From a bacterium (GTDB lineage Bacteria > Patescibacteriota > Microgenomatia > Levybacterales > UBA12049), in contig JAKALS010000004.1 in assembly GCA_021813145.1 (NCBI GenBank), positions 72,594-136,593 on the forward strand: DNA of 64,000 nucleotides, written 5' to 3'. Below are positions 45,566-55,967 of this stretch, piece after piece. Each line of letters starts with the position of its first letter. The first letter of the stretch is position 1. Both the position numbers and the translations under genes were made by a program. The notes beneath the pieces were generated by a model that was not told the DNA's origin, ran no database searches, and worked only from the letters and a program-made list of their open reading frames with translations.

Positions 45566-46054
45566 GTGGAAGTCAATGCTACGACAGAGAAAATAATTAA
45601 ATTATTAAAAGATAATAAGATTTGGTTCGAAATGCATGAGCATGCCCCAGTCAGAACCTCTGAAGAGGCAGCCAAATTAAGAATCGGATATACTCTACAT
45701 CAGGGCGCAAAAGCTTTAATTCTTCACATCGATGATGGTCAAAAAAAGCGGTTTTTAATGTGCGTTTTGCCTGCCGATAAAAAGATCGACAACAATAGAT
45801 TAAGGCAGATTTTACAAACTAAAGACATTCGTTTCGCAACCATCGATGAAGTAGAAATAGTCACAAATGGAGTAAAAATCGGAGGCGTTCCTCCATTTGG
45901 GAATTTATTTACTGTAGAAACTATTGTAGATAACGAACTGCTTACTAACGAGACCATAGTTTTCAATGCAGGAGATAGAAGAATCACTATTGCGATGAAA
46001 GCTAAGGACTACATTTTTCTTACAAAACCTAGGCTGGAGTCTTTCTGCAAATAG
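45566..46054 (+). CDS. YbaK/ProX aminoacyl-tRNA trans-editing domain
   Basis: H..VRTSEEAA, GAKALI, RFAT, GGVPPFG, FNAG. Confidence 0.9.
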   Translation: MEVNATTEKIIKLLKDNKIWFEMHEHAPVRTSEEAAKLRIGYTLHQGAKALILHIDDGQKKRFLMCVLPADKKIDNNRLRQILQTKDIRFATIDEVEIVTNGVKIGGVPPFGNLFTVETIVDNELLTNETIVFNAGDRRITIAMKAKDYIFLTKPRLESFCK

Positions 46055-46069: not shown

Positions 46070-46771
46070 TTAGGTTTTTCTGCTGTAGTATCTTTCTAGT
46101 AATGCTAAGGATAAGATCTCAACAGAATTATAGACTGGAAGCGAATATTCAATTGGAAATACTAAAGGTAATTCTGTGCAAGCAAGCACTATAGCCTCCG
46201 CGCCCTCTGACTTTAATATATCAGCTATTCTTTTTAGGTTATTCATATCTTCACCGGTTGAGGACTCAGAAATAACATTTCTTATTGCCTGTTCTATTAT
46301 TGGAAACTCTTTTTCATCAGGTACTATTACATTTACTTCTTTTTTCTCAAGAGCCTTTTGATAAATAGATGAATTAAGAGTTGATGGGGTGCCTAGTAAC
46401 CCAACTTTCTTAATATTATCTTTTTCAATTTGAGTTACAACCTCATCAACGATAGAAACGAATGGAAAATTAGATATAGATTGTAAATCCTGAAGCATTA
46501 TGTGAGCAGTATTGCAAGCAATTGCGCCACATAGAACATTCAGCTTATTCAGTTCTAAAACTTTTTGTTTCAATATCTCAAGCGCTTCTTTTTCTTTCGT
46601 AGAAGAAGATATGAAATCAGGAACAGGAACAGAATACAAGACAATTTGCGGAAAGTCCTCATTATTTACCGCATGGAATTGTTTGACTGCATTATTAATC
46701 AGCGCCGAGTATAAATACGCAGACGCTTCTGGTCCCATTCCTCCTATAATTGCTATTGGTTTATTTTTCAT
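46070..46771 (-). CDS. PLP-independent aspartate/amino-acid racemase (RacX/YgeA-like)
   Basis: IIGGMGPEAS, IACNTAH, LACTELP; true start 46771 because the upstream ORF extension is the T-box leader. Confidence 0.9.
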   Translation of the reverse strand: MKNKPIAIIGGMGPEASAYLYSALINNAVKQFHAVNNEDFPQIVLYSVPVPDFISSSTKEKEALEILKQKVLELNKLNVLCGAIACNTAHIMLQDLQSISNFPFVSIVDEVVTQIEKDNIKKVGLLGTPSTLNSSIYQKALEKKEVNVIVPDEKEFPIIEQAIRNVISESSTGEDMNNLKRIADILKSEGAEAIVLACTELPLVFPIEYSLPVYNSVEILSLALLERYYSRKT

Positions 46772-46781
46772 ATTAGTCAAC

Positions 46782-46975
46782 AAAAAACCCTTGCAAATTC
46801 TCAAGATGAAATTCTCAAAAACTTGCAAGGGTCCTGCAAAAGGACTGTGCCACCTTGCTTTGGTCTTATTCATGACGCGCTCCGTTACCGACACACGTTG
46901 CTGACTTTTACGGTTTCGCCTCCGTGACTGATTAAGTCCTGCTCCCCGATCCCAACCATATCGGATCAACGCATT
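46782..46975 (-). ncRNA. T-box riboswitch (ultrashort stem I, UGG/Trp specifier, intrinsic terminator)
   Basis: stem I UGC-GUU-GA-UCCGAU-[AUGGUUGGG]-AUCGGG-GA-GCA; antiterminator CAAGG-UGGCACA-GUCC...GGAC-CCUUG; terminator CCCUUGCAAG...UUUGCAAGGG-UUUUUU. Confidence 0.82.
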
Positions 46976-46989
46976 TACTTTCTAAGCGT

Positions 46990-47018
46990 AGGATACCACA
47001 AAACAGAAATTACGTCAA
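46990..47018 (-). promoter_or_regulatory. sigma70 promoter of the T-box leader
   Basis: TTGACG-17 nt-TATCCT with extended TG. Confidence 0.7.
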
Positions 47019-47506
47019 GCAGCTTGGGATGATTCAGGCACAGTCCATTCCTTTAGATCAGTCTCAAATTCTCTTACCAGATTAACTCCTTTTTTGACTG
47101 CATTTGTGCTGTTTGGTAAAGAACTTTCTCCCTGTCCAGTGTATTCAATTAATGCATCTGGGTATCCATGCGTAATTATAGTTGTATCCACATGTACCTT
47201 TCGACCATCTCCCATTAACTCCAACTGTTGCCCTTCCCATATTGGCATAAAATTAATTTCATATAAATGACCGTTGCCGGCGATTATTGGAAAGCTGCTC
47301 CTATTTCCTAAAACAAGCAAGCTTCCATATGTGTCGCTTTGAAGAAATCCGGGAGTTCTAATTAAAGCAGCAATTACAGTATCGATTATGCGACAAGCAT
47401 TATCTAATCTTTCTGATTGAATTAGTTGTCTATTTTCTGTCCCTAGCCATGCATCAAATGCTATAGCGCTTATTTGCTGCTGTACTGCTTCTCTATTTAA
47501 ACTCAT
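47015..47506 (-). CDS. hypothetical protein
   Basis: 4 nt downstream of the trpS-like gene; no recognised motif. Confidence 0.7.
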   Translation of the reverse strand: MSLNREAVQQQISAIAFDAWLGTENRQLIQSERLDNACRIIDTVIAALIRTPGFLQSDTYGSLLVLGNRSSFPIIAGNGHLYEINFMPIWEGQQLELMGDGRKVHVDTTIITHGYPDALIEYTGQGESSLPNSTNAVKKGVNLVREFETDLKEWTVPESSQAA

Positions 47507-47510
47507 ACGC

Positions 47511-48680
47511 CTATTTTACCTTAAGAGGTGATCGGATTGGAGTATCAAATATAAATTCCGGTGTTCTTGCTTTTGCCTCTGGCAATTTACCTTGATGATC
47601 AGCGAGATACACCAAGACTTCATCGACTGCTTGAGCCTTACATTCTCCGCACAAAATCTCACCACTACTACATTGCTCAGCAAGCCTGCTATTATCAAAG
47701 TGGTATGTTCTTAATTGATATATAGGACAGATTTCGGGAACTCCTCCATGCTCCCTTTGGAAACTGCCCAAAACACTGCCCCCTGTGTAAGCTGACATAA
47801 TTTTCTTTTTTGCAGTTTTGGGATCATCTGTTAAGAATACCGCGCCTTCTGGTCTGGATGCGGACATTTTTCCTTTTCCATCCAAACCTGCTCCAAATTT
47901 TGTGAATGTTGCTGCAGGCGGAGTAAATCCCTTTTTGCGGGCTGCATCCCTTGCCAATAATATGTACGGATACTGATCAACTCCTACCGGAATTACCGTT
48001 GGTTTTGGCCCCCCAAGTTCTTCATATTGAGGTAAGAGAATTTGTGCTAGTTGAACTGCTCCTCGATAGAAAACCGTACCAGAGTTTTCACCTTCCTCAT
48101 CTTTACCGAATCCAAAAACTCCGAAAATTTTATTTAGGCTTGTGTGTTTTGCGATATCCATAGCGGCATTGTAAAGGTCCGGATAGTCAGAATCTACGAA
48201 TATGTGTGTTTTATCTGGAGAAAAACCCATAGCTATAATGCTTGGAATTACAGATTCGTAAGCAGTTCTTCTAGCCTCACCTAGACTACTAGCTTTACCA
48301 ACAAGATAACTCTCGTCGTTTGTTATGGGAATATATACATCCGCTCCTTGTCTTTGCATCCATAATAATTCGTCGAAGACTTGTTTGTGCCCAAAATGTA
48401 ATGGGCCTGAAGGGTTAAGCCCTGAAACCACAGCCCATGGCTCTCCATTGGCCATTGCGCCAACTACGCTTTCTAAATCTCTATGAGCGAAGGTAACTCC
48501 TAATTCCATTAGTCGACTTGGATCAGGATGATATAACCTAAATCTATCAATAGGTTTTAAATCTAGCTCAGCCATTTTTTGAGGATAATAAGCTAACTCC
48601 TCATCTCGCTTTGCTAATTTAGCTTGATGATCTTGTCTTGAAATTTCTTCTAGTTGTGTTTGTCGTTCAGGTCCTAGCAT
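47511..48680 (-). CDS. trpS: tryptophanyl-tRNA synthetase-like protein, archaeal type
   Basis: SGLNPSGPLHFGH (HIGH), PVGVDQ, KMSAS, AYTGG, C-x18-C-x6-C-x2-C. Confidence 0.8.
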   Translation of the reverse strand: MLGPERQTQLEEISRQDHQAKLAKRDEELAYYPQKMAELDLKPIDRFRLYHPDPSRLMELGVTFAHRDLESVVGAMANGEPWAVVSGLNPSGPLHFGHKQVFDELLWMQRQGADVYIPITNDESYLVGKASSLGEARRTAYESVIPSIIAMGFSPDKTHIFVDSDYPDLYNAAMDIAKHTSLNKIFGVFGFGKDEEGENSGTVFYRGAVQLAQILLPQYEELGGPKPTVIPVGVDQYPYILLARDAARKKGFTPPAATFTKFGAGLDGKGKMSASRPEGAVFLTDDPKTAKKKIMSAYTGGSVLGSFQREHGGVPEICPIYQLRTYHFDNSRLAEQCSSGEILCGECKAQAVDEVLVYLADHQGKLPEAKARTPEFIFDTPIRSPLKVK

Positions 48681-48681
48681 A

Positions 48682-49461
48682 TTATTTAACGGGATATGAA
48701 TTAACTAATGTTCTTAAAAACATTACGGTTTCGTCTATCGCCCTTGGATTGACATTAGTAATGTCATCATCTTTAGTTTGCATTCTGTGCCAAGCTCCTT
48801 CGTGGTAACGCGCTATTACTGCTGCTGCTAAACCCTCTTCTAGAAAGGCTAGATTGTCAGCATTTGGACTATGGTCCCTAAGCTCAACAGGTACTCCTAC
48901 TTTCTTCCCGTGCTCAATGAGAAGCTTATTTAGTTCAGCTGTGTTATCAAGTCTTCTTCCAGTTGTTTGGAAAACCGACATATTTCCTTTTCCAACTGCT
49001 TGAATTGTAATCGCCCCATCGTAAGTATCGATAAATTCCGTTTCATCTGTTATTAAATGTTGTACAAATAGTTTTGACCCTGGAACAAAATCAGGATTTC
49101 TTCGTTGTCTAGTAGCTAAATCCGGATCTAATCCAGCATCAAAATACACCAACCTGATATTAACCGGCAATTTTGCCTTCTGTAAGTGTTCGCTCAACTT
49201 TAATAGCGTGACTACGCTGCTTCCATTGTTGTTGGCGCTTGGTAATGTACCAAAAGTATCGTAATTCGCAGTTACCCAAAGATCATGCGGTTTGTCGTAA
49301 TCAAAAGCAACTACAAGATGTCTGTCAACCCCGCGGGGAGATGTAATTTCGTAAACACGAGGAATTATGCCAAGCTTTCTAGTCTCTTCATCCAAATAAT
49401 TTGCCCGGCCTTCGGTGCCTTGCCCCATTAAACTTTTTAAACTCTTATAGGTTTCTATCAT
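48682..49461 (-). CDS. M28 peptidase-fold protein with its Zn ligands replaced
   Basis: VTANYDT, SANNNGSSV, FDAGL, TIQAVG, ADNLAF, MQTKDD align with M28 AHYD/ANDNASG/FDAEE/NLDM/SDH..F/YHT..D. Confidence 0.7.
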   Translation of the reverse strand: MIETYKSLKSLMGQGTEGRANYLDEETRKLGIIPRVYEITSPRGVDRHLVVAFDYDKPHDLWVTANYDTFGTLPSANNNGSSVVTLLKLSEHLQKAKLPVNIRLVYFDAGLDPDLATRQRRNPDFVPGSKLFVQHLITDETEFIDTYDGAITIQAVGKGNMSVFQTTGRRLDNTAELNKLLIEHGKKVGVPVELRDHSPNADNLAFLEEGLAAAVIARYHEGAWHRMQTKDDDITNVNPRAIDETVMFLRTLVNSYPVK

Positions 49462-49463
49462 AT

Positions 49464-50474
49464 TTAAAATCTTGACAGTACGTAAGTTTCCACATCTCTT
49501 CCAACTCTTTCTTTTAAGACATTTGGCGAAATTTGTCCATCATAAAACTCATCAGCTAGTGTTATTGGAGAATCAACGCCTTCCAATCTTCTTTTTGCCA
49601 TTTCGCAAATAATTCCGATATCTAAGGTTGGATTGGGAACCGCGGGGTTAGTAGAAATGAATGAAGCACTTATTAATTCTCTAACATAATCAGGGTCTGA
49701 TCTTTCGATTACTATTCTATTTCTTTGCAAACGTTTGCTTCCTGTTTTATATGCAGTAATCCCATGATCTTCAATGCCCTCATTGGCAAAGAAATATGAC
49801 CAATTCATTCCTAGCGGAAAAGTTGGGGTTAGAAAAAGAGACATTAAGCCTTTTTGCCCACTTCTTTCAGCAACTCTTCTGGCGACATCGTCATACAGAT
49901 CTTCTCTTGGTGGCCCAACTTTTATGTCAAGCCCCAAGATTGTGGCGATTTCGTCAAAAGAATACATGAATCCTTTTACTCTTTCAATTTCTACTTTCGA
50001 TTCAGGAACTGTTTTCTCTACTGCCGCCATAAGTTCTGGATCTGCATTGCAGGTTTGCATAACCCTGTCTCTTTCGGCAACAAATTCTGGTGAATCTATA
50101 TATTCACTCATTCTTACAACTCTCAGTCCCGTATTGTATACGTCATTAACTTTACTTACGAATTTTGCTCTTTGATCGCCAAGAAGCATATAATAATCCT
50201 GATGTTCCTGTCCAACATTTCTACAAGCTGCGGTGTCTGCAACTAAAATTGAAGGATCAACGTTAGAACCCTCCTGTTTTAAGGCTTCTGCAAGATACGA
50301 AACGAACAAGTAATATTTAAGACTATCGATCGGATGACCTTTATCATCATATGTCTCTCCGTAGAAAAGTCTCATAGGCTCAGGAGCAATGCTGCCCGCT
50401 CTACTCCTTATGTCTTCTGCTGAAGGAGCTTGCGAAACTAAACCACGTGTCGATAGTAATCTTTCAATATTCAT
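49464..50474 (-). CDS. degenerate class Ic aaRS / cyclodipeptide-synthase-like Rossmann protein
   Basis: FYGET, ILVAD, YSFDEIA (YxxxE), DIKVGPPRE, RIVIERSDPDYVRELI; no HIGH or KMSKS. Confidence 0.55.
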   Translation of the reverse strand: MNIERLLSTRGLVSQAPSAEDIRSRAGSIAPEPMRLFYGETYDDKGHPIDSLKYYLFVSYLAEALKQEGSNVDPSILVADTAACRNVGQEHQDYYMLLGDQRAKFVSKVNDVYNTGLRVVRMSEYIDSPEFVAERDRVMQTCNADPELMAAVEKTVPESKVEIERVKGFMYSFDEIATILGLDIKVGPPREDLYDDVARRVAERSGQKGLMSLFLTPTFPLGMNWSYFFANEGIEDHGITAYKTGSKRLQRNRIVIERSDPDYVRELISASFISTNPAVPNPTLDIGIICEMAKRRLEGVDSPITLADEFYDGQISPNVLKERVGRDVETYVLSRF

Positions 50475-50569
50475 ATCCTTTACTATAGGGACGTAATTAT
50501 ACTCCCAACTCTAGTTAATTTCAACCCATCTAGATTGAAAATAAAGATATTAAGCAGTATAATTCTGCC

Positions 50570-51613
50570 ATGGTTAATGAACAATATAGGCCAGAAGTCA
50601 TAAATGCCGAACAAAGACTAGGAATTCACTTTGTCAAACCCGATAGCTATTTGGCTGACAGATTAAATTCTCAAATTGCAATAATTGCTGAAACTTTGAA
50701 TGTTCCCGCTAGTATGCCCGTTATACCAGCAAGGGGATTTATTGATAGGCCTTTATTAACCGGGCAGAGACGTGAGATAGATCAACTTATAGAGCTAGAA
50801 TATGCTAATGATGCTGTAGACTTGCAAGATGGATTAACGGCAATTCCTGTAAGAGAAAATGGCGAACGAATGGTACATTTACCTACGCTATTTGAAAGAG
50901 ACAGAATTCCTCTAAGTTTATCATCGCTTCCGTTTCATGAGGCTTGTGGAGAATGGGCGGGAAAAGAAAGGGTATTCTGGGCAAGACAGCAAGTTGCAGA
51001 ACATTTATTAAGAGCAGGAATAGCATTAGATAAGTTAGATATCGTTTTGCATATTGAAGATGCTTTTCGTCCCGTTGGGGTTCAAGAAGGACTTTTTCTT
51101 AGAAGAGCGAAAATGATACTTCAGGAACATCCTGAATGGATAGTTAACTGGGATAAAGTTTGGGCAGAAGCAAGAAGCAAAACAGCCATAACTCCCTTAA
51201 TGGCAGGTCATAAGTCAGGCGCTGCGTTAGACATAACGTTACGAAAGAAATCTAATGGGGAACCTCTATCTATAGGGAACAAATATCCCGAAGGTGGAGC
51301 TAAGGTTGCATTACGTTATCCATATGTTACTCAAGAAGAATGGGCTGCGCGTCAGTTATTCGTCCGCACCATGGAAATGGCAGGTTTACGAAGATATCCA
51401 TATGAAACTTGGCATATCTCATACGGTGACTTGTCTGCGGGTATTTCAGCTGATTCTGATACGGAAATAACGTCGGGTTACGAAGCAATGTACGGTCCTA
51501 TTGAGGGCTTCAACTCTAATGGTGAAGTAATTCCTTACTCTACAGATACGTACAATCAACCATTCTATTCGCAGTTAGAATTACTGGATATAATAAAGAG
51601 GGAAGGTAGATAG
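50570..51613 (+). CDS. VanX/DdpX-like D-Ala-D-Ala dipeptidase (M15D)
   Basis: EDAFRP..VQ, GHKSGAALDITL, ETWHISYG; TTGAAA-17-TATAAT promoter. Confidence 0.8.
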   Translation: MVNEQYRPEVINAEQRLGIHFVKPDSYLADRLNSQIAIIAETLNVPASMPVIPARGFIDRPLLTGQRREIDQLIELEYANDAVDLQDGLTAIPVRENGERMVHLPTLFERDRIPLSLSSLPFHEACGEWAGKERVFWARQQVAEHLLRAGIALDKLDIVLHIEDAFRPVGVQEGLFLRRAKMILQEHPEWIVNWDKVWAEARSKTAITPLMAGHKSGAALDITLRKKSNGEPLSIGNKYPEGGAKVALRYPYVTQEEWAARQLFVRTMEMAGLRRYPYETWHISYGDLSAGISADSDTEITSGYEAMYGPIEGFNSNGEVIPYSTDTYNQPFYSQLELLDIIKREGR

Positions 51614-51617
51614 CTTC

Positions 51618-52775
51618 TTATTTTACTTCAAAAACAACAGTATCTTTTGTAATACGGTCCATTTTTTCTAGATCAACATCCCACCCTCTACCAGGTGTAG
51701 TTGGCACTTTAATATATGCTCCATCAGGTTCTCTTTCCATTGGAGCAACACATGGATCGTCACCTTCTTTAAAATATGCGGAAGTGCCTGAGATATCAGA
51801 TGGTAACGTAACTCCTGGATGCGCAGCCATCGCTAAAGAATGAGCCTTCCCAGGAGAAGTTAGCTCAACCATTCCGCCAACCCATGTGTCAACTCCTCTT
51901 TCTTGACAGTAATCAATCATTTTTCGAGCAATGTCTAATCCTCCAACTCTAGTCACCTTAATGTTAATTATGGGGATTCCTCCTTCTACTGCTTGTTCCA
52001 AATCGCTCATTGTATGAATACTCTCATCTAAGCAAATTCTTCCTGGAACACTATTTACATTAAATTCTTGTTGTAATTGTGTATGAGCAACGATATCGTT
52101 ATATGCCAATGGCTGTTCCATCATTAGCAAATCAAGATTTCCATATCCAATAAGTAATCTTTTGTGCTCTGGATTATGTAAATCAAAAGATGAGTTAGCG
52201 TCAATCATGAGTAGTACATCTGGATATGCTGTTCGAATACGTGCAATCTTATCCAAATCTCCTTGACTTGGCCCAACTTTTATTTTTATACGACGGTATT
52301 TATCTTTTGAAATTCTTTCTGCAATTTGTTCTAACGAATCGTTTTTTGAAATGCTTACTCCTACCTCGACTTGAGGCTTTTCTCCTCCCAATAATGTGAA
52401 CAAAGGAACATCCTTATCGATTGCTTCAGCATCCAAGTATAGATTAGCGAATGCCGCTTGGAAAATTGGATGATCCATAAGAAATCCTAGAGATCGAACA
52501 GCTTCGCGTGGATCATCGAAATCTTTGCCTACAAATTTACTTCCAATTTCATTTAGTAATGCCCATGCCTCTATGGTTGATTCAGACCCATAAACAGGGA
52601 ATTTAGTAGTATCTATTGAACTCCAAGCTTCAACTCCATTTGAAGTTTGCCCACGCAGAGCAATCATATCTCTTTTGGGACCAATATCTCGAGGTAAACC
52701 ATCAACGTCACCAAGAGAAAAGACATGTCTCATCTCCGGCGTGATGTATCGTGCTTCTAAACGTTCGAATTTCAT
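51618..52775 (-). CDS. enolase-superfamily NSAR/OSBS (N-acyl/succinyl amino-acid racemase)
   Basis: KIKVGP, IDAN, EQP, LDES, INIK..RVGG, WVGGM, PSDIS. Confidence 0.85.
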   Translation of the reverse strand: MKFERLEARYITPEMRHVFSLGDVDGLPRDIGPKRDMIALRGQTSNGVEAWSSIDTTKFPVYGSESTIEAWALLNEIGSKFVGKDFDDPREAVRSLGFLMDHPIFQAAFANLYLDAEAIDKDVPLFTLLGGEKPQVEVGVSISKNDSLEQIAERISKDKYRRIKIKVGPSQGDLDKIARIRTAYPDVLLMIDANSSFDLHNPEHKRLLIGYGNLDLLMMEQPLAYNDIVAHTQLQQEFNVNSVPGRICLDESIHTMSDLEQAVEGGIPIINIKVTRVGGLDIARKMIDYCQERGVDTWVGGMVELTSPGKAHSLAMAAHPGVTLPSDISGTSAYFKEGDDPCVAPMEREPDGAYIKVPTTPGRGWDVDLEKMDRITKDTVVFEVK

Positions 52776-52781
52776 AATAAT

Positions 52782-53408
52782 TTAGTAATCTAAGTTAAAT
52801 ACTAGAGCATATGCATCTCCAACATTGTAATTTAGTTCACTGTATGAAATCCTATCGTTTTGGGGAATATCCGCATACATAGGCCGTCCGTATAACCCTG
52901 GAAGCAAGACTCTCTCATCCATAGAATAACCTCTGATTTCCCCTGATTGCTTCATTGCTTCGAGTGTATTTTTAATACCGGCTTCAATATTTGGATTTTG
53001 CGTCTCGGTAAACACAATGTGATAACCTCTTTCAATTCCCCTTCTTACTCTTTCCTGAGACATTTTTCTATAAAGACCTGTTTTTTGCGCTTCACCTTCA
53101 ATTAAAACGCCTGCAAGGTAAACGCCCATTCCTTCTGGAAATGGAAAGTTAACCCCTGGAATTCCGTCAAAGGCATCTTTTGGAGATTTAAATTCTATTG
53201 AATCGAAACCAACAGCTCTTCCAGAGCCTTCTGCGACATAAATACTTAAAACATCTCCTTTTAAATGCCTTCGAACATCATCATCTGTGGGGACAAAACC
53301 GCTGGTATTTCGGCAGGCAAGAATTTGTTGAATTGTATCTTCGCCAATTCTCGGATCTTCACAACCAGCGACACTTTCTAAACGTCTAGCAATTATATTT
53401 TCTATCAT
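52782..53408 (-). CDS. GNAT-fold acyltransferase-like protein
   Basis: VYLAGVLI...QKTGLY acetyl-CoA-binding-like motif, TQNP; GGGAGGTGA SD. Confidence 0.6.
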   Translation of the reverse strand: MIENIIARRLESVAGCEDPRIGEDTIQQILACRNTSGFVPTDDDVRRHLKGDVLSIYVAEGSGRAVGFDSIEFKSPKDAFDGIPGVNFPFPEGMGVYLAGVLIEGEAQKTGLYRKMSQERVRRGIERGYHIVFTETQNPNIEAGIKNTLEAMKQSGEIRGYSMDERVLLPGLYGRPMYADIPQNDRISYSELNYNVGDAYALVFNLDY

Positions 53409-54441: not shown

Positions 54442-55182
54442 TTACTTTAAATATTCGTTTATATCCATAGCGGGGACAGTTCCTAATTTTTGAAGCTCAA
54501 TAATTAAATTCATAAAAAAATTTACCAAGCTATTTTCATCCTTTTGCAAAGCCAATTGATAAGGTTTTTTATTCTCATCCCAAGGATGATAACTTGAAAG
54601 TTTAAAATATGTTTTTCCTATCAATGAACAACCAAAATTTATTACTTTATTTTCATCGGAATTAACTACTATTCCTTGCATCTCCTTTGACAATGAGCCG
54701 TCAAAAGCTAAAATACCTGCAAGTACTCTAGCGTGTTTCTTAGGAGGATATACCCCTCCCGCATGAGGAATTTCAATACTCGTTCTTTTAAGTTTTCTTA
54801 CGGACTCTGCTTTATTTTGAGCGTAGGTTATATTCTCTTTACTTAAATCCTGTTTTACCTCAATAACTGCATACACACATTCAGCAGGAACATATGTAAC
54901 ACCATTTTGTCTCAATATAAATGGTGAATATTGCCTATCAAAGATGACAATGTCAATCTGGTCACTTATTTCTCCGTCGGAGTCAATAACGAAAGCTTTA
55001 TCCGCACAGTACCTTTTAGGAAGATAGGTTGAAAGCATTTCTATCCACTCTAATTCTGTGAAATCACCTTTCGCCGTAGAATGTCCAACAACAGATCTGT
55101 TAAAAGTTAGCTTAGCTTCCATTTGCGTTTGTAAACCTTTAAATATTTCTTTTGTATTGATTTTGTTTTTTGCTTTTACCAT
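54442..55182 (-). CDS. nucC: CBASS effector endonuclease NucC
   Basis: H..AKGD..E..W...L..YLPKRY, SDQIDIVIFDRQYSP, VPAECVYAVIEVKQ, TVPAMD. Confidence 0.92.
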   Translation of the reverse strand: MVKAKNKINTKEIFKGLQTQMEAKLTFNRSVVGHSTAKGDFTELEWIEMLSTYLPKRYCADKAFVIDSDGEISDQIDIVIFDRQYSPFILRQNGVTYVPAECVYAVIEVKQDLSKENITYAQNKAESVRKLKRTSIEIPHAGGVYPPKKHARVLAGILAFDGSLSKEMQGIVVNSDENKVINFGCSLIGKTYFKLSSYHPWDENKKPYQLALQKDENSLVNFFMNLIIELQKLGTVPAMDINEYLK

Positions 55183-55967
55183 ATAACAGGCGACAAATTT
55201 CCCGTAAGATAAATCGATGTTAAACTACTCGCCGCTTCATTTTTTATTTTAGCTTTTTCTACTTGCGTTAATTCTTCAGATACTTCGTTTCCTAGATTTG
55301 AGGGATCGAGAATAACTTTATCTTCAAAATCATTTGCAAGATAAGTCATTATATCAATAAAATTTTGTGAGGGGCTTCTCGAATAGGATTTTCCGCTTAA
55401 AGCTTCAATAACAGACAACTCTAAATAAAAGGATGGAAAATCTAAGCTCCATAATTTTCTCCAAATTTTCAAAGCTTTGATGTCGGAAATCCTACCTGAA
55501 TTTGCAACGTAACTTATATGTTCATCTATATTTGTTTTCGTCCATGTACCTGGTTTTCTTTTCCAAATAGAGTGATCAGCACTATTAAGAGACTGCTCAA
55601 CCCCTGCTACTAAATCAATTTTGTATCCTGAATGATTTATGCCGATGGAAACATTTTGTTCTCTTACGGAATATCCGGCACCATTAAATCTATTTTTTAA
55701 AGTTGTATATACCTGTTGTAATGTATTACAGGTACTAACAGACGGATTTAGCGAAATGAAATAATCTATGTCAGTTGTACCCGTTATACCAGTCCCTTTT
55801 GCTAAAGATCCCGATAGTTTTAATTCATACTCGTGTCCATTTGCCCAAGAAAGTATATGTATATTCAATTCATTTCCTATTTGAATAACATCATAAGTGA
55901 CATTTGGCGAATGACTTAAAACAACGCTGTTTATGTAATTATCGCTTGCAGATATGTCTAAATTCAT
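55176..55967 (-). CDS. cGAS/DncV-like nucleotidyltransferase (CD-NTase)
   Basis: SGSLAKGT...TDID, QNVSIG, IDLV, K.W, SFYLEL, DPSNLGNEVS; overlaps nucC. Confidence 0.9.
   Translation of the reverse strand: MNLDISASDNYINSVVLSHSPNVTYDVIQIGNELNIHILSWANGHEYELKLSGSLAKGTGITGTTDIDYFISLNPSVSTCNTLQQVYTTLKNRFNGAGYSVREQNVSIGINHSGYKIDLVAGVEQSLNSADHSIWKRKPGTWTKTNIDEHISYVANSGRISDIKALKIWRKLWSLDFPSFYLELSVIEALSGKSYSRSPSQNFIDIMTYLANDFEDKVILDPSNLGNEVSEELTQVEKAKIKNEAASSLTSIYLTGNLSPVIW

Follow-up and report, generated by a model that had tools for sequence, protein, structure and literature searches.

What does a synthetase homolog that has lost its ATP-binding motifs do beside an extra tryptophanyl-tRNA synthetase (TrpRS)? 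The question is raised by a 64,000-nucleotide stretch of contig JAKALS010000004.1 (assembly GCA_021813145.1, Patescibacteriota; here called the window), in which four minus-strand open reading frames (ORFs) are separated by 2, 1 and 4 nt, a spacing reported by a first-pass annotation and confirmed here. That annotation saw a candidate new tRNA-dependent peptide-bond system, the first gene product (ORF1) being an intermediate between aminoacyl-tRNA synthetases (aaRSs) and cyclodipeptide synthases (CDPSs). By described features and gene orders, we assign the pair of ORF1 and its TrpRS to the ORF1/TrpRS-A2 family of Mukai, Reynolds, Crnkovic and Soll (2017; PMC5370408); it is not a new system. 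The module is real, conserved and of a described kind; its window version adds an optional pseudo-peptidase and a racemase under a tryptophan T-box (Table 1). Most probably the ORF1/TrpRS-A2 pair serves in tryptophan starvation by maintaining a supply of correctly charged Trp-tRNA, and we tentatively propose that ORF1 is an editing deacylase of mis-acylated tRNA.

Mukai et al. described an aaRS-like ORF1 that always adjoins TrpRS-A1, -A2 or -A-like in bacteria of the candidate phyla radiation (CPR) and in DPANN archaea, alongside a canonical TrpRS. They considered its function unclear, proposed a role in tryptophan metabolism and a possible heterodimer, and gave TrpRS-A2 as an archaeal-type enzyme with four cysteines of the C-x22-C-x6-C-x2-C type (PMC5370408). 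The window shares the extra archaeal-type, four-Cys TrpRS beside ORF1 and the coexisting canonical enzyme, but its first cysteine spacer is shorter (x18), it has no linked tRNA-Trp, and it carries an M28 insert, racemases and a T-box. Peptidase, T-box, racemase and deacylase are not mentioned in the accessible text of that paper, whose Figure 4 may draw such genes. The ORF1 prediction in the same text lacked a Rossmann fold, whereas our model has a complete one. Our trees gave the same three Trp clades (A1, A2 and A-like) with the same gene orders, and the named relatives of ORF1 belong to Patescibacteria and DPANN archaea. No functional study of ORF1/TrpRS-A since 2017 was found in the literature searched, most subscription papers being outside its reach; a 2022 review, as far as its accessible text goes, mentions the finding only as an orthogonal pair (PMC9437257).

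The coupling of ORF1 to TrpRS is tight. We collected 73 non-redundant A2-clade ORF1 genes, 65 of them with downstream DNA visible. TrpRS-A follows directly in 53 and an M28 gene in 11 (nine then reach TrpRS-A, two a contig end), and in the remaining one TrpRS-A lies nearby on the opposite strand; three natural fusions were also seen. Homologs were thus found together with TrpRS and with M28 genes in this neighbourhood survey, where the annotation had named a lack of such co-occurrence as grounds for giving up its reading. The distribution is patchy, and the module is absent from all 24 same-family genomes examined. Since the window genome (954 kb, completeness 100%) has its own bacterial trpS, on contig C6, the operon TrpRS is an extra copy; neither this trpS nor the tyrS on contig C4 is close to the ORF1 operon, and the single tRNA-Trp of the genome (G73) also lies away from it. 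Other loci (L007, L063, L067, L078, L095) carry tandem ORF1/TrpRS-A pairs, two or three per locus and from different clades, and some of these loci also have an opine dehydrogenase or a Trp ABC transporter.

TrpRS-A2 has archaeal best matches. Its motifs HFGH (95-98) and KMSAS (271-275) are conserved, together with GVDQ, across 54 A2 TrpRS proteins, and its cysteines (C318-x18-C337-x6-C344-x2-C347) form a putative 4Fe-4S site. The pocket is altered (V85, N121, R206, Q213) and Ser302 replaces the anticodon-domain Arg. If, as we assume, V85 and Q213 stand where the indole-NH acceptor Tyr or Asp would be and S302 at the anticodon-domain Arg, the canonical TrpRS specificity residues are not kept.

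The ORF1 model aligns to tyrosyl-tRNA synthetase (TyrRS) across residues 1-336, anticodon domain included, and its complete Rossmann domain places it in the HUP/class I aaRS fold, which the annotation had made a precondition. Its description as an ATP-less class Ic protein with an anticodon domain is likewise borne out: neither HIGH register has a conserved His, and a longer insert takes the place of the KMSKS loop. Besides losing HIGH and KMSKS, ORF1 differs from archaeal/eukaryotic TyrRS (2cya) and from the double-length pseudo-dimer of Leishmania (3p0h) in having Glu at their two amine-binding Gln positions and a Lys on the floor of the side-chain pocket. Eleven positions (G39, D50, D80, Y171, E175, K185, G187, E191, D195, Y242, R253) are conserved in four clades that stand at about 20-35% identity. 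Lys185 is invariant and Y171 at 100% in all clades, and E175 is at 100% except in A1 (82%); T41, placed by sequence register, occurs in 97-100% of the three Trp clades and is Gly in a fourth, tyrosine-linked clade (the Tyr clade). The pocket holds new invariant charged residues and shows no decay, and this conserved remodelling suggests catalysis on an aminoacyl ester. The middle of the protein is CDPS-like, as had been noticed: residues 74-157 match the AlbC profile, and Y171/E175 are the equivalents of the amine-binding CDPS Tyr178/Glu182, so that the amine site may work as in the first CDPS step. More distant ORF1 clades were also seen (P0229, P0234, P0236, P0246, P0252; P0228, P0244, P0249).

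Downstream of the operon we found a T-box leader, a class of ON switches for uncharged tRNA (PMC7583486). In the window its UGG specifier lies at 46954-46952, the antiterminator, with bulge UGGC, starts at 46856 and the terminator, which overlaps it, spans 46833-46786 (fold energies -13.1 and -29.3 kcal/mol for antiterminator and terminator); a candidate promoter lies at 47018-46990. Specifier, Stem II, UGGN antiterminator and terminator are shared with known T-boxes (RF00230; PMC7583486), whereas the combination of a short Stem I with a terminator is not, and the leader scores below Rfam detection. The window leader gave no match to Rfam RF00230; homologous leaders do match it, below the gathering score (E 7.7e-9 for locus L005). 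Nine of 16 pairs, in both helices, change on both sides, a count reached by none of 500 shuffles, with the structure drawn from the same sequences. All 16 distinct short-stem leaders carry UGG followed by a purine. A Gly specifier (GGR), possible by register, was rejected: the bulge N is either C or U, with U in seven A1 leaders and C in two, but tRNA-Gly has U73. The C form pairs with G73 of tRNA-Trp. Because the discriminator fails for tRNA-Gly and the L055 leader heads a racemase-trpS operon, we read UGG as Trp. Short-stem UGG leaders also head racemase-ORF1-TrpRS-A2 in L005 and the A1 operons, besides the racemase in the window.

The Tyr clade is wired reciprocally. In all ten genomes of the class that carry it, this distant ORF1 precedes TyrRS; nine of them also have tRNA-Tyr and a UAC T-box. 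In loci L041-L046 and L133-L136 it sits between tRNA-Tyr and tyrS behind the UAC T-box, and in L045 and L046 the ORF starts 1-2 nt past the tRNA. The adjoining enzyme is the sole TyrRS found in nine of the ten genomes and an extra archaeal-type enzyme in the tenth (G216). Since the clade accompanies both bacterial- and archaeal-type TyrRS, coupling through the tRNA is favoured. Six aligned members have Asp at 178, the TyrRS tyrosine-OH position. Composition follows the same lines: a low content of the cognate amino acid is a mark of proteins required once its supply is exhausted (PMC4209129), and Tyr-clade proteins contain Tyr at 0.33x background, eight of ten having just 2-3 Tyr where about 11 would be expected (median pairwise identity 38%). 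Six of the ten retain no Tyr beyond the two invariant ones. The member without tRNA or T-box has 12 Tyr, and Trp-clade ORF1s have 11-20. A1 pairs contain no Trp at all (11 of 11). Taken together, uncharged-tRNA switches and cognate depletion tie the ORF1 family to the supply of charged tRNA, which argues against a peptide product.

Taking the observed fold, residues, gene coupling, T-box leaders and composition bias as a basis, we infer tRNA binding, substrate, hydrolysis and dimer as follows. TrpRS-A2, with its ATP motifs, would act as a second synthetase, probably scavenging and less selective. ORF1, as an ATP-independent enzyme, would bind the charged tRNA via its retained anticodon domain, perhaps as a heterodimer with the synthetase; Tyr171, Glu175 and Glu191 would grip the alpha-amine, and esters of D-Trp or of a wrong amino acid would be hydrolysed. 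The tRNA would thereby be freed and the D-amino acid passed to neighbouring racemases. Editing is favoured because chiral errors are known from few synthetases, TyrRS and TrpRS among them (PMC10123102), and because racemases and YbaK adjoin ORF1; it also fits that the window genome has no DTD1. With the trans-editing deacylases DTD1 and YbaK/ProX, ORF1 would share only a proposed function, the ATP-independent hydrolysis of mis-acylated tRNA next to a synthetase; their folds are unrelated to that of ORF1, and YbaK is a frequent ORF1 neighbour. No class Ic-derived deacylase turned up in our searches.

Several observations weigh against this scheme. The window ORF1 operon is upstream of the T-box and not controlled by it, only the racemase being downstream; among A2 leaders only that of L005 is intact, that of L053 being degenerate and those of L054 and L057-L060 truncated. 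Trp depletion of A2 ORF1 is weak (0.28x, one conserved Trp), and 92 of the 317 genome proteins likewise have no more than one Trp. T-boxes commonly precede tyrS, and those of the Tyr clade may regulate only that gene. In the A-like clade neither partner retains the anticodon-domain signature. No racemase lies near 18 of the 29 ORF1 genes with at least 2.5 kb on either side (the long-flank set, from related genomes, not independent draws). DTD1 is not under-represented in ORF1 genomes (three of 18 against 80 of 401 genomes of the class), so that ORF1 is not a simple DTD replacement.

Rather less probable is that ORF1 is the non-catalytic subunit of a heterodimeric TrpRS in which TrpRS-A catalyses, an arrangement that Mukai et al. 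proposed by analogy with the double-length TyrRS of Leishmania (PMC5370408). ORF1 would then give an anticodon domain or allosteric activation and make a high-affinity or relaxed starvation enzyme. One-to-one pairing, the fusions and the matching clades in both trees agree with this, as does the loss of the anticodon-domain Arg in TrpRS-A1/A2 while the ORF1 C-terminal domain stays conserved. ORF1 and TrpRS distances are correlated (rho 0.66, 0 of 2000 permutations as high), which shared ancestry alone can yield. Eleven conserved pocket positions with new chemistry exceed the needs of a dead subunit, however, and the two TyrRS types of the Tyr clade are hard to fit to a single dimer interface.

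We consider it unlikely that ORF1 acts as an epimerase of aminoacyl-tRNA without a cofactor. In that scheme the synthetase would load D-Trp or D-Tyr and ORF1 would invert the alpha-carbon on the tRNA, Lys185 with Glu/Tyr serving as acid and base, so that D-amino acids would be salvaged by indirect charging. The alpha-protons of esters are fairly acidic, and the invariance of Lys185 suits the scheme. It accounts jointly for cognate depletion, T-box control and racemase neighbours, and would explain why the Trp clades need a synthetase of their own, altered in its pocket, whereas the Tyr clade relies on the sole housekeeping TyrRS in nine of ten genomes, as well as the lack of anti-correlation with DTD1. 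It would be partly redundant with a free-amino-acid racemase under the same T-box, however, and we know of no precedent for an aminoacyl-tRNA epimerase.

Still more doubtful is a CDPS-like transferase, closest to the first-pass proposal, that moves Trp from Trp-tRNA onto Thr41 to yield an amide or cyclodipeptide with the M28 protein as binding partner. CDPSs (AlbC, YvmC, Rv2275, BcmA; PF16715) share with ORF1 the class Ic Rossmann fold with CP1, the lack of ATP motifs and the Tyr-x3-Glu amine site. The position that corresponds by sequence register to the catalytic Ser37 holds a hydroxyl residue, Thr41, in the Trp clades and Gly in the Tyr clade. Atlas clusters of CDPS-like and PvcA proteins at 0.93-0.95 are a lead only, and some loci with three pairs and an opine dehydrogenase, peptidases or an EamA transporter look like biosynthetic clusters. 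CDPSs have no separate tRNA- or anticodon-binding domain (PMC4159871), and most CDPS alignment rows end near residue 220 of ORF1, which keeps that domain. By sequence register, the invariant Gly187 takes the position of the cyclising Tyr202 (PMC11580168). The basic helix alpha4 region of CDPSs is neutral in ORF1 (residues 88-113, mean 4.7 K/R against 4.4 D/E in 66 A2 proteins). Because the anticodon domain is kept and Tyr202 and the basic helix are missing, ORF1 does not belong to the CDPSs, from which its obligate synthetase partner also sets it apart. With Gly for Thr41 in the Tyr clade and the supply-side signature, the idea that Trp-tRNA is spent on a peptide product is not supported. Very improbable is other ATP-independent chemistry, either an emergency decoding route in which empty tRNA-Trp or tRNA-Tyr receives another aminoacyl group (e.g. 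Phe), or amine chemistry of the PvcA type, for which one may cite a plant/yeast-type chorismate mutase near 17 and a HisC-like aminotransferase near nine of the 73 ORF1 genes, locus tRNA discriminators foreign to the host and DIT1_PvcA in 20 of 30 Atlas feature matches.

The fold, the invariant pocket residues, the reciprocal Trp/Tyr wiring and the D-amino-acid neighbours reduce the question of ORF1 to a few direct assays. Should ORF1 prove to edit or epimerise aminoacyl-tRNA, the class Ic scaffold would gain a new activity, and ORF1 would be a living intermediate that links synthetases with CDPSs. It would also hint at the way in which auxotrophic CPR and DPANN organisms survive amino-acid shortage. 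An epimerase would be the first that is tRNA-dependent and would open a new indirect aminoacylation route, making D-amino acids usable by these organisms during starvation. The orthogonal tRNAs of other ORF1 loci may find use in genetic code expansion. Discriminators foreign to the host are carried by the locus tRNA-Trp genes, namely G73 beside archaeal-type A2 pairs at five loci (L003, L004, L008, L098, L109) and A73 beside bacterial A1 pairs (L019, L034-L039, L063, L068, L071, L078).

Table 1. Features of the ORF1 locus, in window coordinates.
Feature	Position	Strand	Remarks
ORF1 (A2 clade), ATP-less class Ic synthetase homolog with full archaeal TyrRS fold (model)	49464..50474	-	336 aa
M28-fold pseudo-peptidase, optional accessory	48682..49461	-	
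TrpRS-A2, extra archaeal-type TrpRS	47511..48680	-	
163-aa ORFan, co-oriented passenger outside the conserved module	47015..47506	-	
Short-Stem-I transcriptional T-box	46780..46975	-	
Asp/Glu-family racemase downstream of T-box, 233 aa	46070..46771	-	both catalytic Cys present
YbaK/ProX-family tRNA deacylase, recurrent ORF1 neighbour	45566..46054	+	
Back-to-back sigma70 promoters (ORF1 operon; VanX-like gene)	50496..50563	both directions	identical hexamers
VanX/M15-like D,D-dipeptidase homolog	50570..51613	+	
Enolase of the o-succinylbenzoate synthase/N-acylamino acid racemase (OSBS/NSAR) subfamily, probable N-acylamino acid racemase	51618..52775	-	
Probable GNAT-like acyltransferase, travels with NSAR and VanX-like genes	52782..53408	-	label inferred from context and sequence

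The M28 protein is metal-free, as the annotation had it. Compared with YwaD and 4fuu, the His/Asp/Glu/Asp/His ligands and catalytic Glu of M28 metallopeptidases are not retained; their positions carry N66, N78, G110-L111 and Q154, and Q228 stands at what we take, from the sequence motif, to be the position of the last His. Because all 11 aligned homologs share the replacements N66, N78, L111, Q154 and Q228 without exception, the pocket appears to be kept under selection and probably binds a ligand. A core role for the protein is not supported, an M28 gene being near only 12 of the 73 ORF1 genes, and the orphan, absent from every other mapped ORF1 locus, drops out of the system.

Around the long-flank genes we counted a racemase in 11, YbaK in nine, chorismate mutase in nine, an aminotransferase in seven, NSAR in seven and an M20 hydrolase in four. 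NSAR is present in six of 401 class genomes, yet adjoins seven of these 29 genes. With an identity of just 34%, the archaeal copy reflects a second recruitment. The NSAR/OSBS and GNAT-like gene pair resembles a known NSAR cluster, but the third enzyme is VanX-like in the window and a D-aminoacylase-like hydrolase in L001/L089, so that either direction may apply. The GNAT-like protein has no match in Pfam or NCBIfam. NSAR loci without ORF1 (L148-L150) have a conserved protein of about 470 aa before NSAR and often an M20 hydrolase after it. The window racemase truly starts at ATG 46771; the longest ORF call (46070-46969) begins at a TTG within the T-box leader.

TrpB2 and a Trp ABC transporter flank other ORF1 loci. 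Two unannotated families with no NCBIfam match directly adjoin ORF1 or TrpRS-A (L085:1-777, L088, L091, L035:2-613, L036). The HisC-like aminotransferases at ORF1 clusters (L084:4286-5365 and relatives) contain no Trp in 14 of 14 copies. A 555-aa Rossmann-like protein of no known family lies between trpS and a racemase-ORF1 operon (L006:5465-7132). The ARAGORN list of the window genome (43 tRNAs) has a tRNA-Ile(UAU), a single tRNA-Met(CAU) and no tRNA-Asn. At 54442-55967 the window also holds a DUF6602 and SMODS nucleotidyltransferase pair resembling a cyclic-oligonucleotide-based antiphage signalling system (CBASS).

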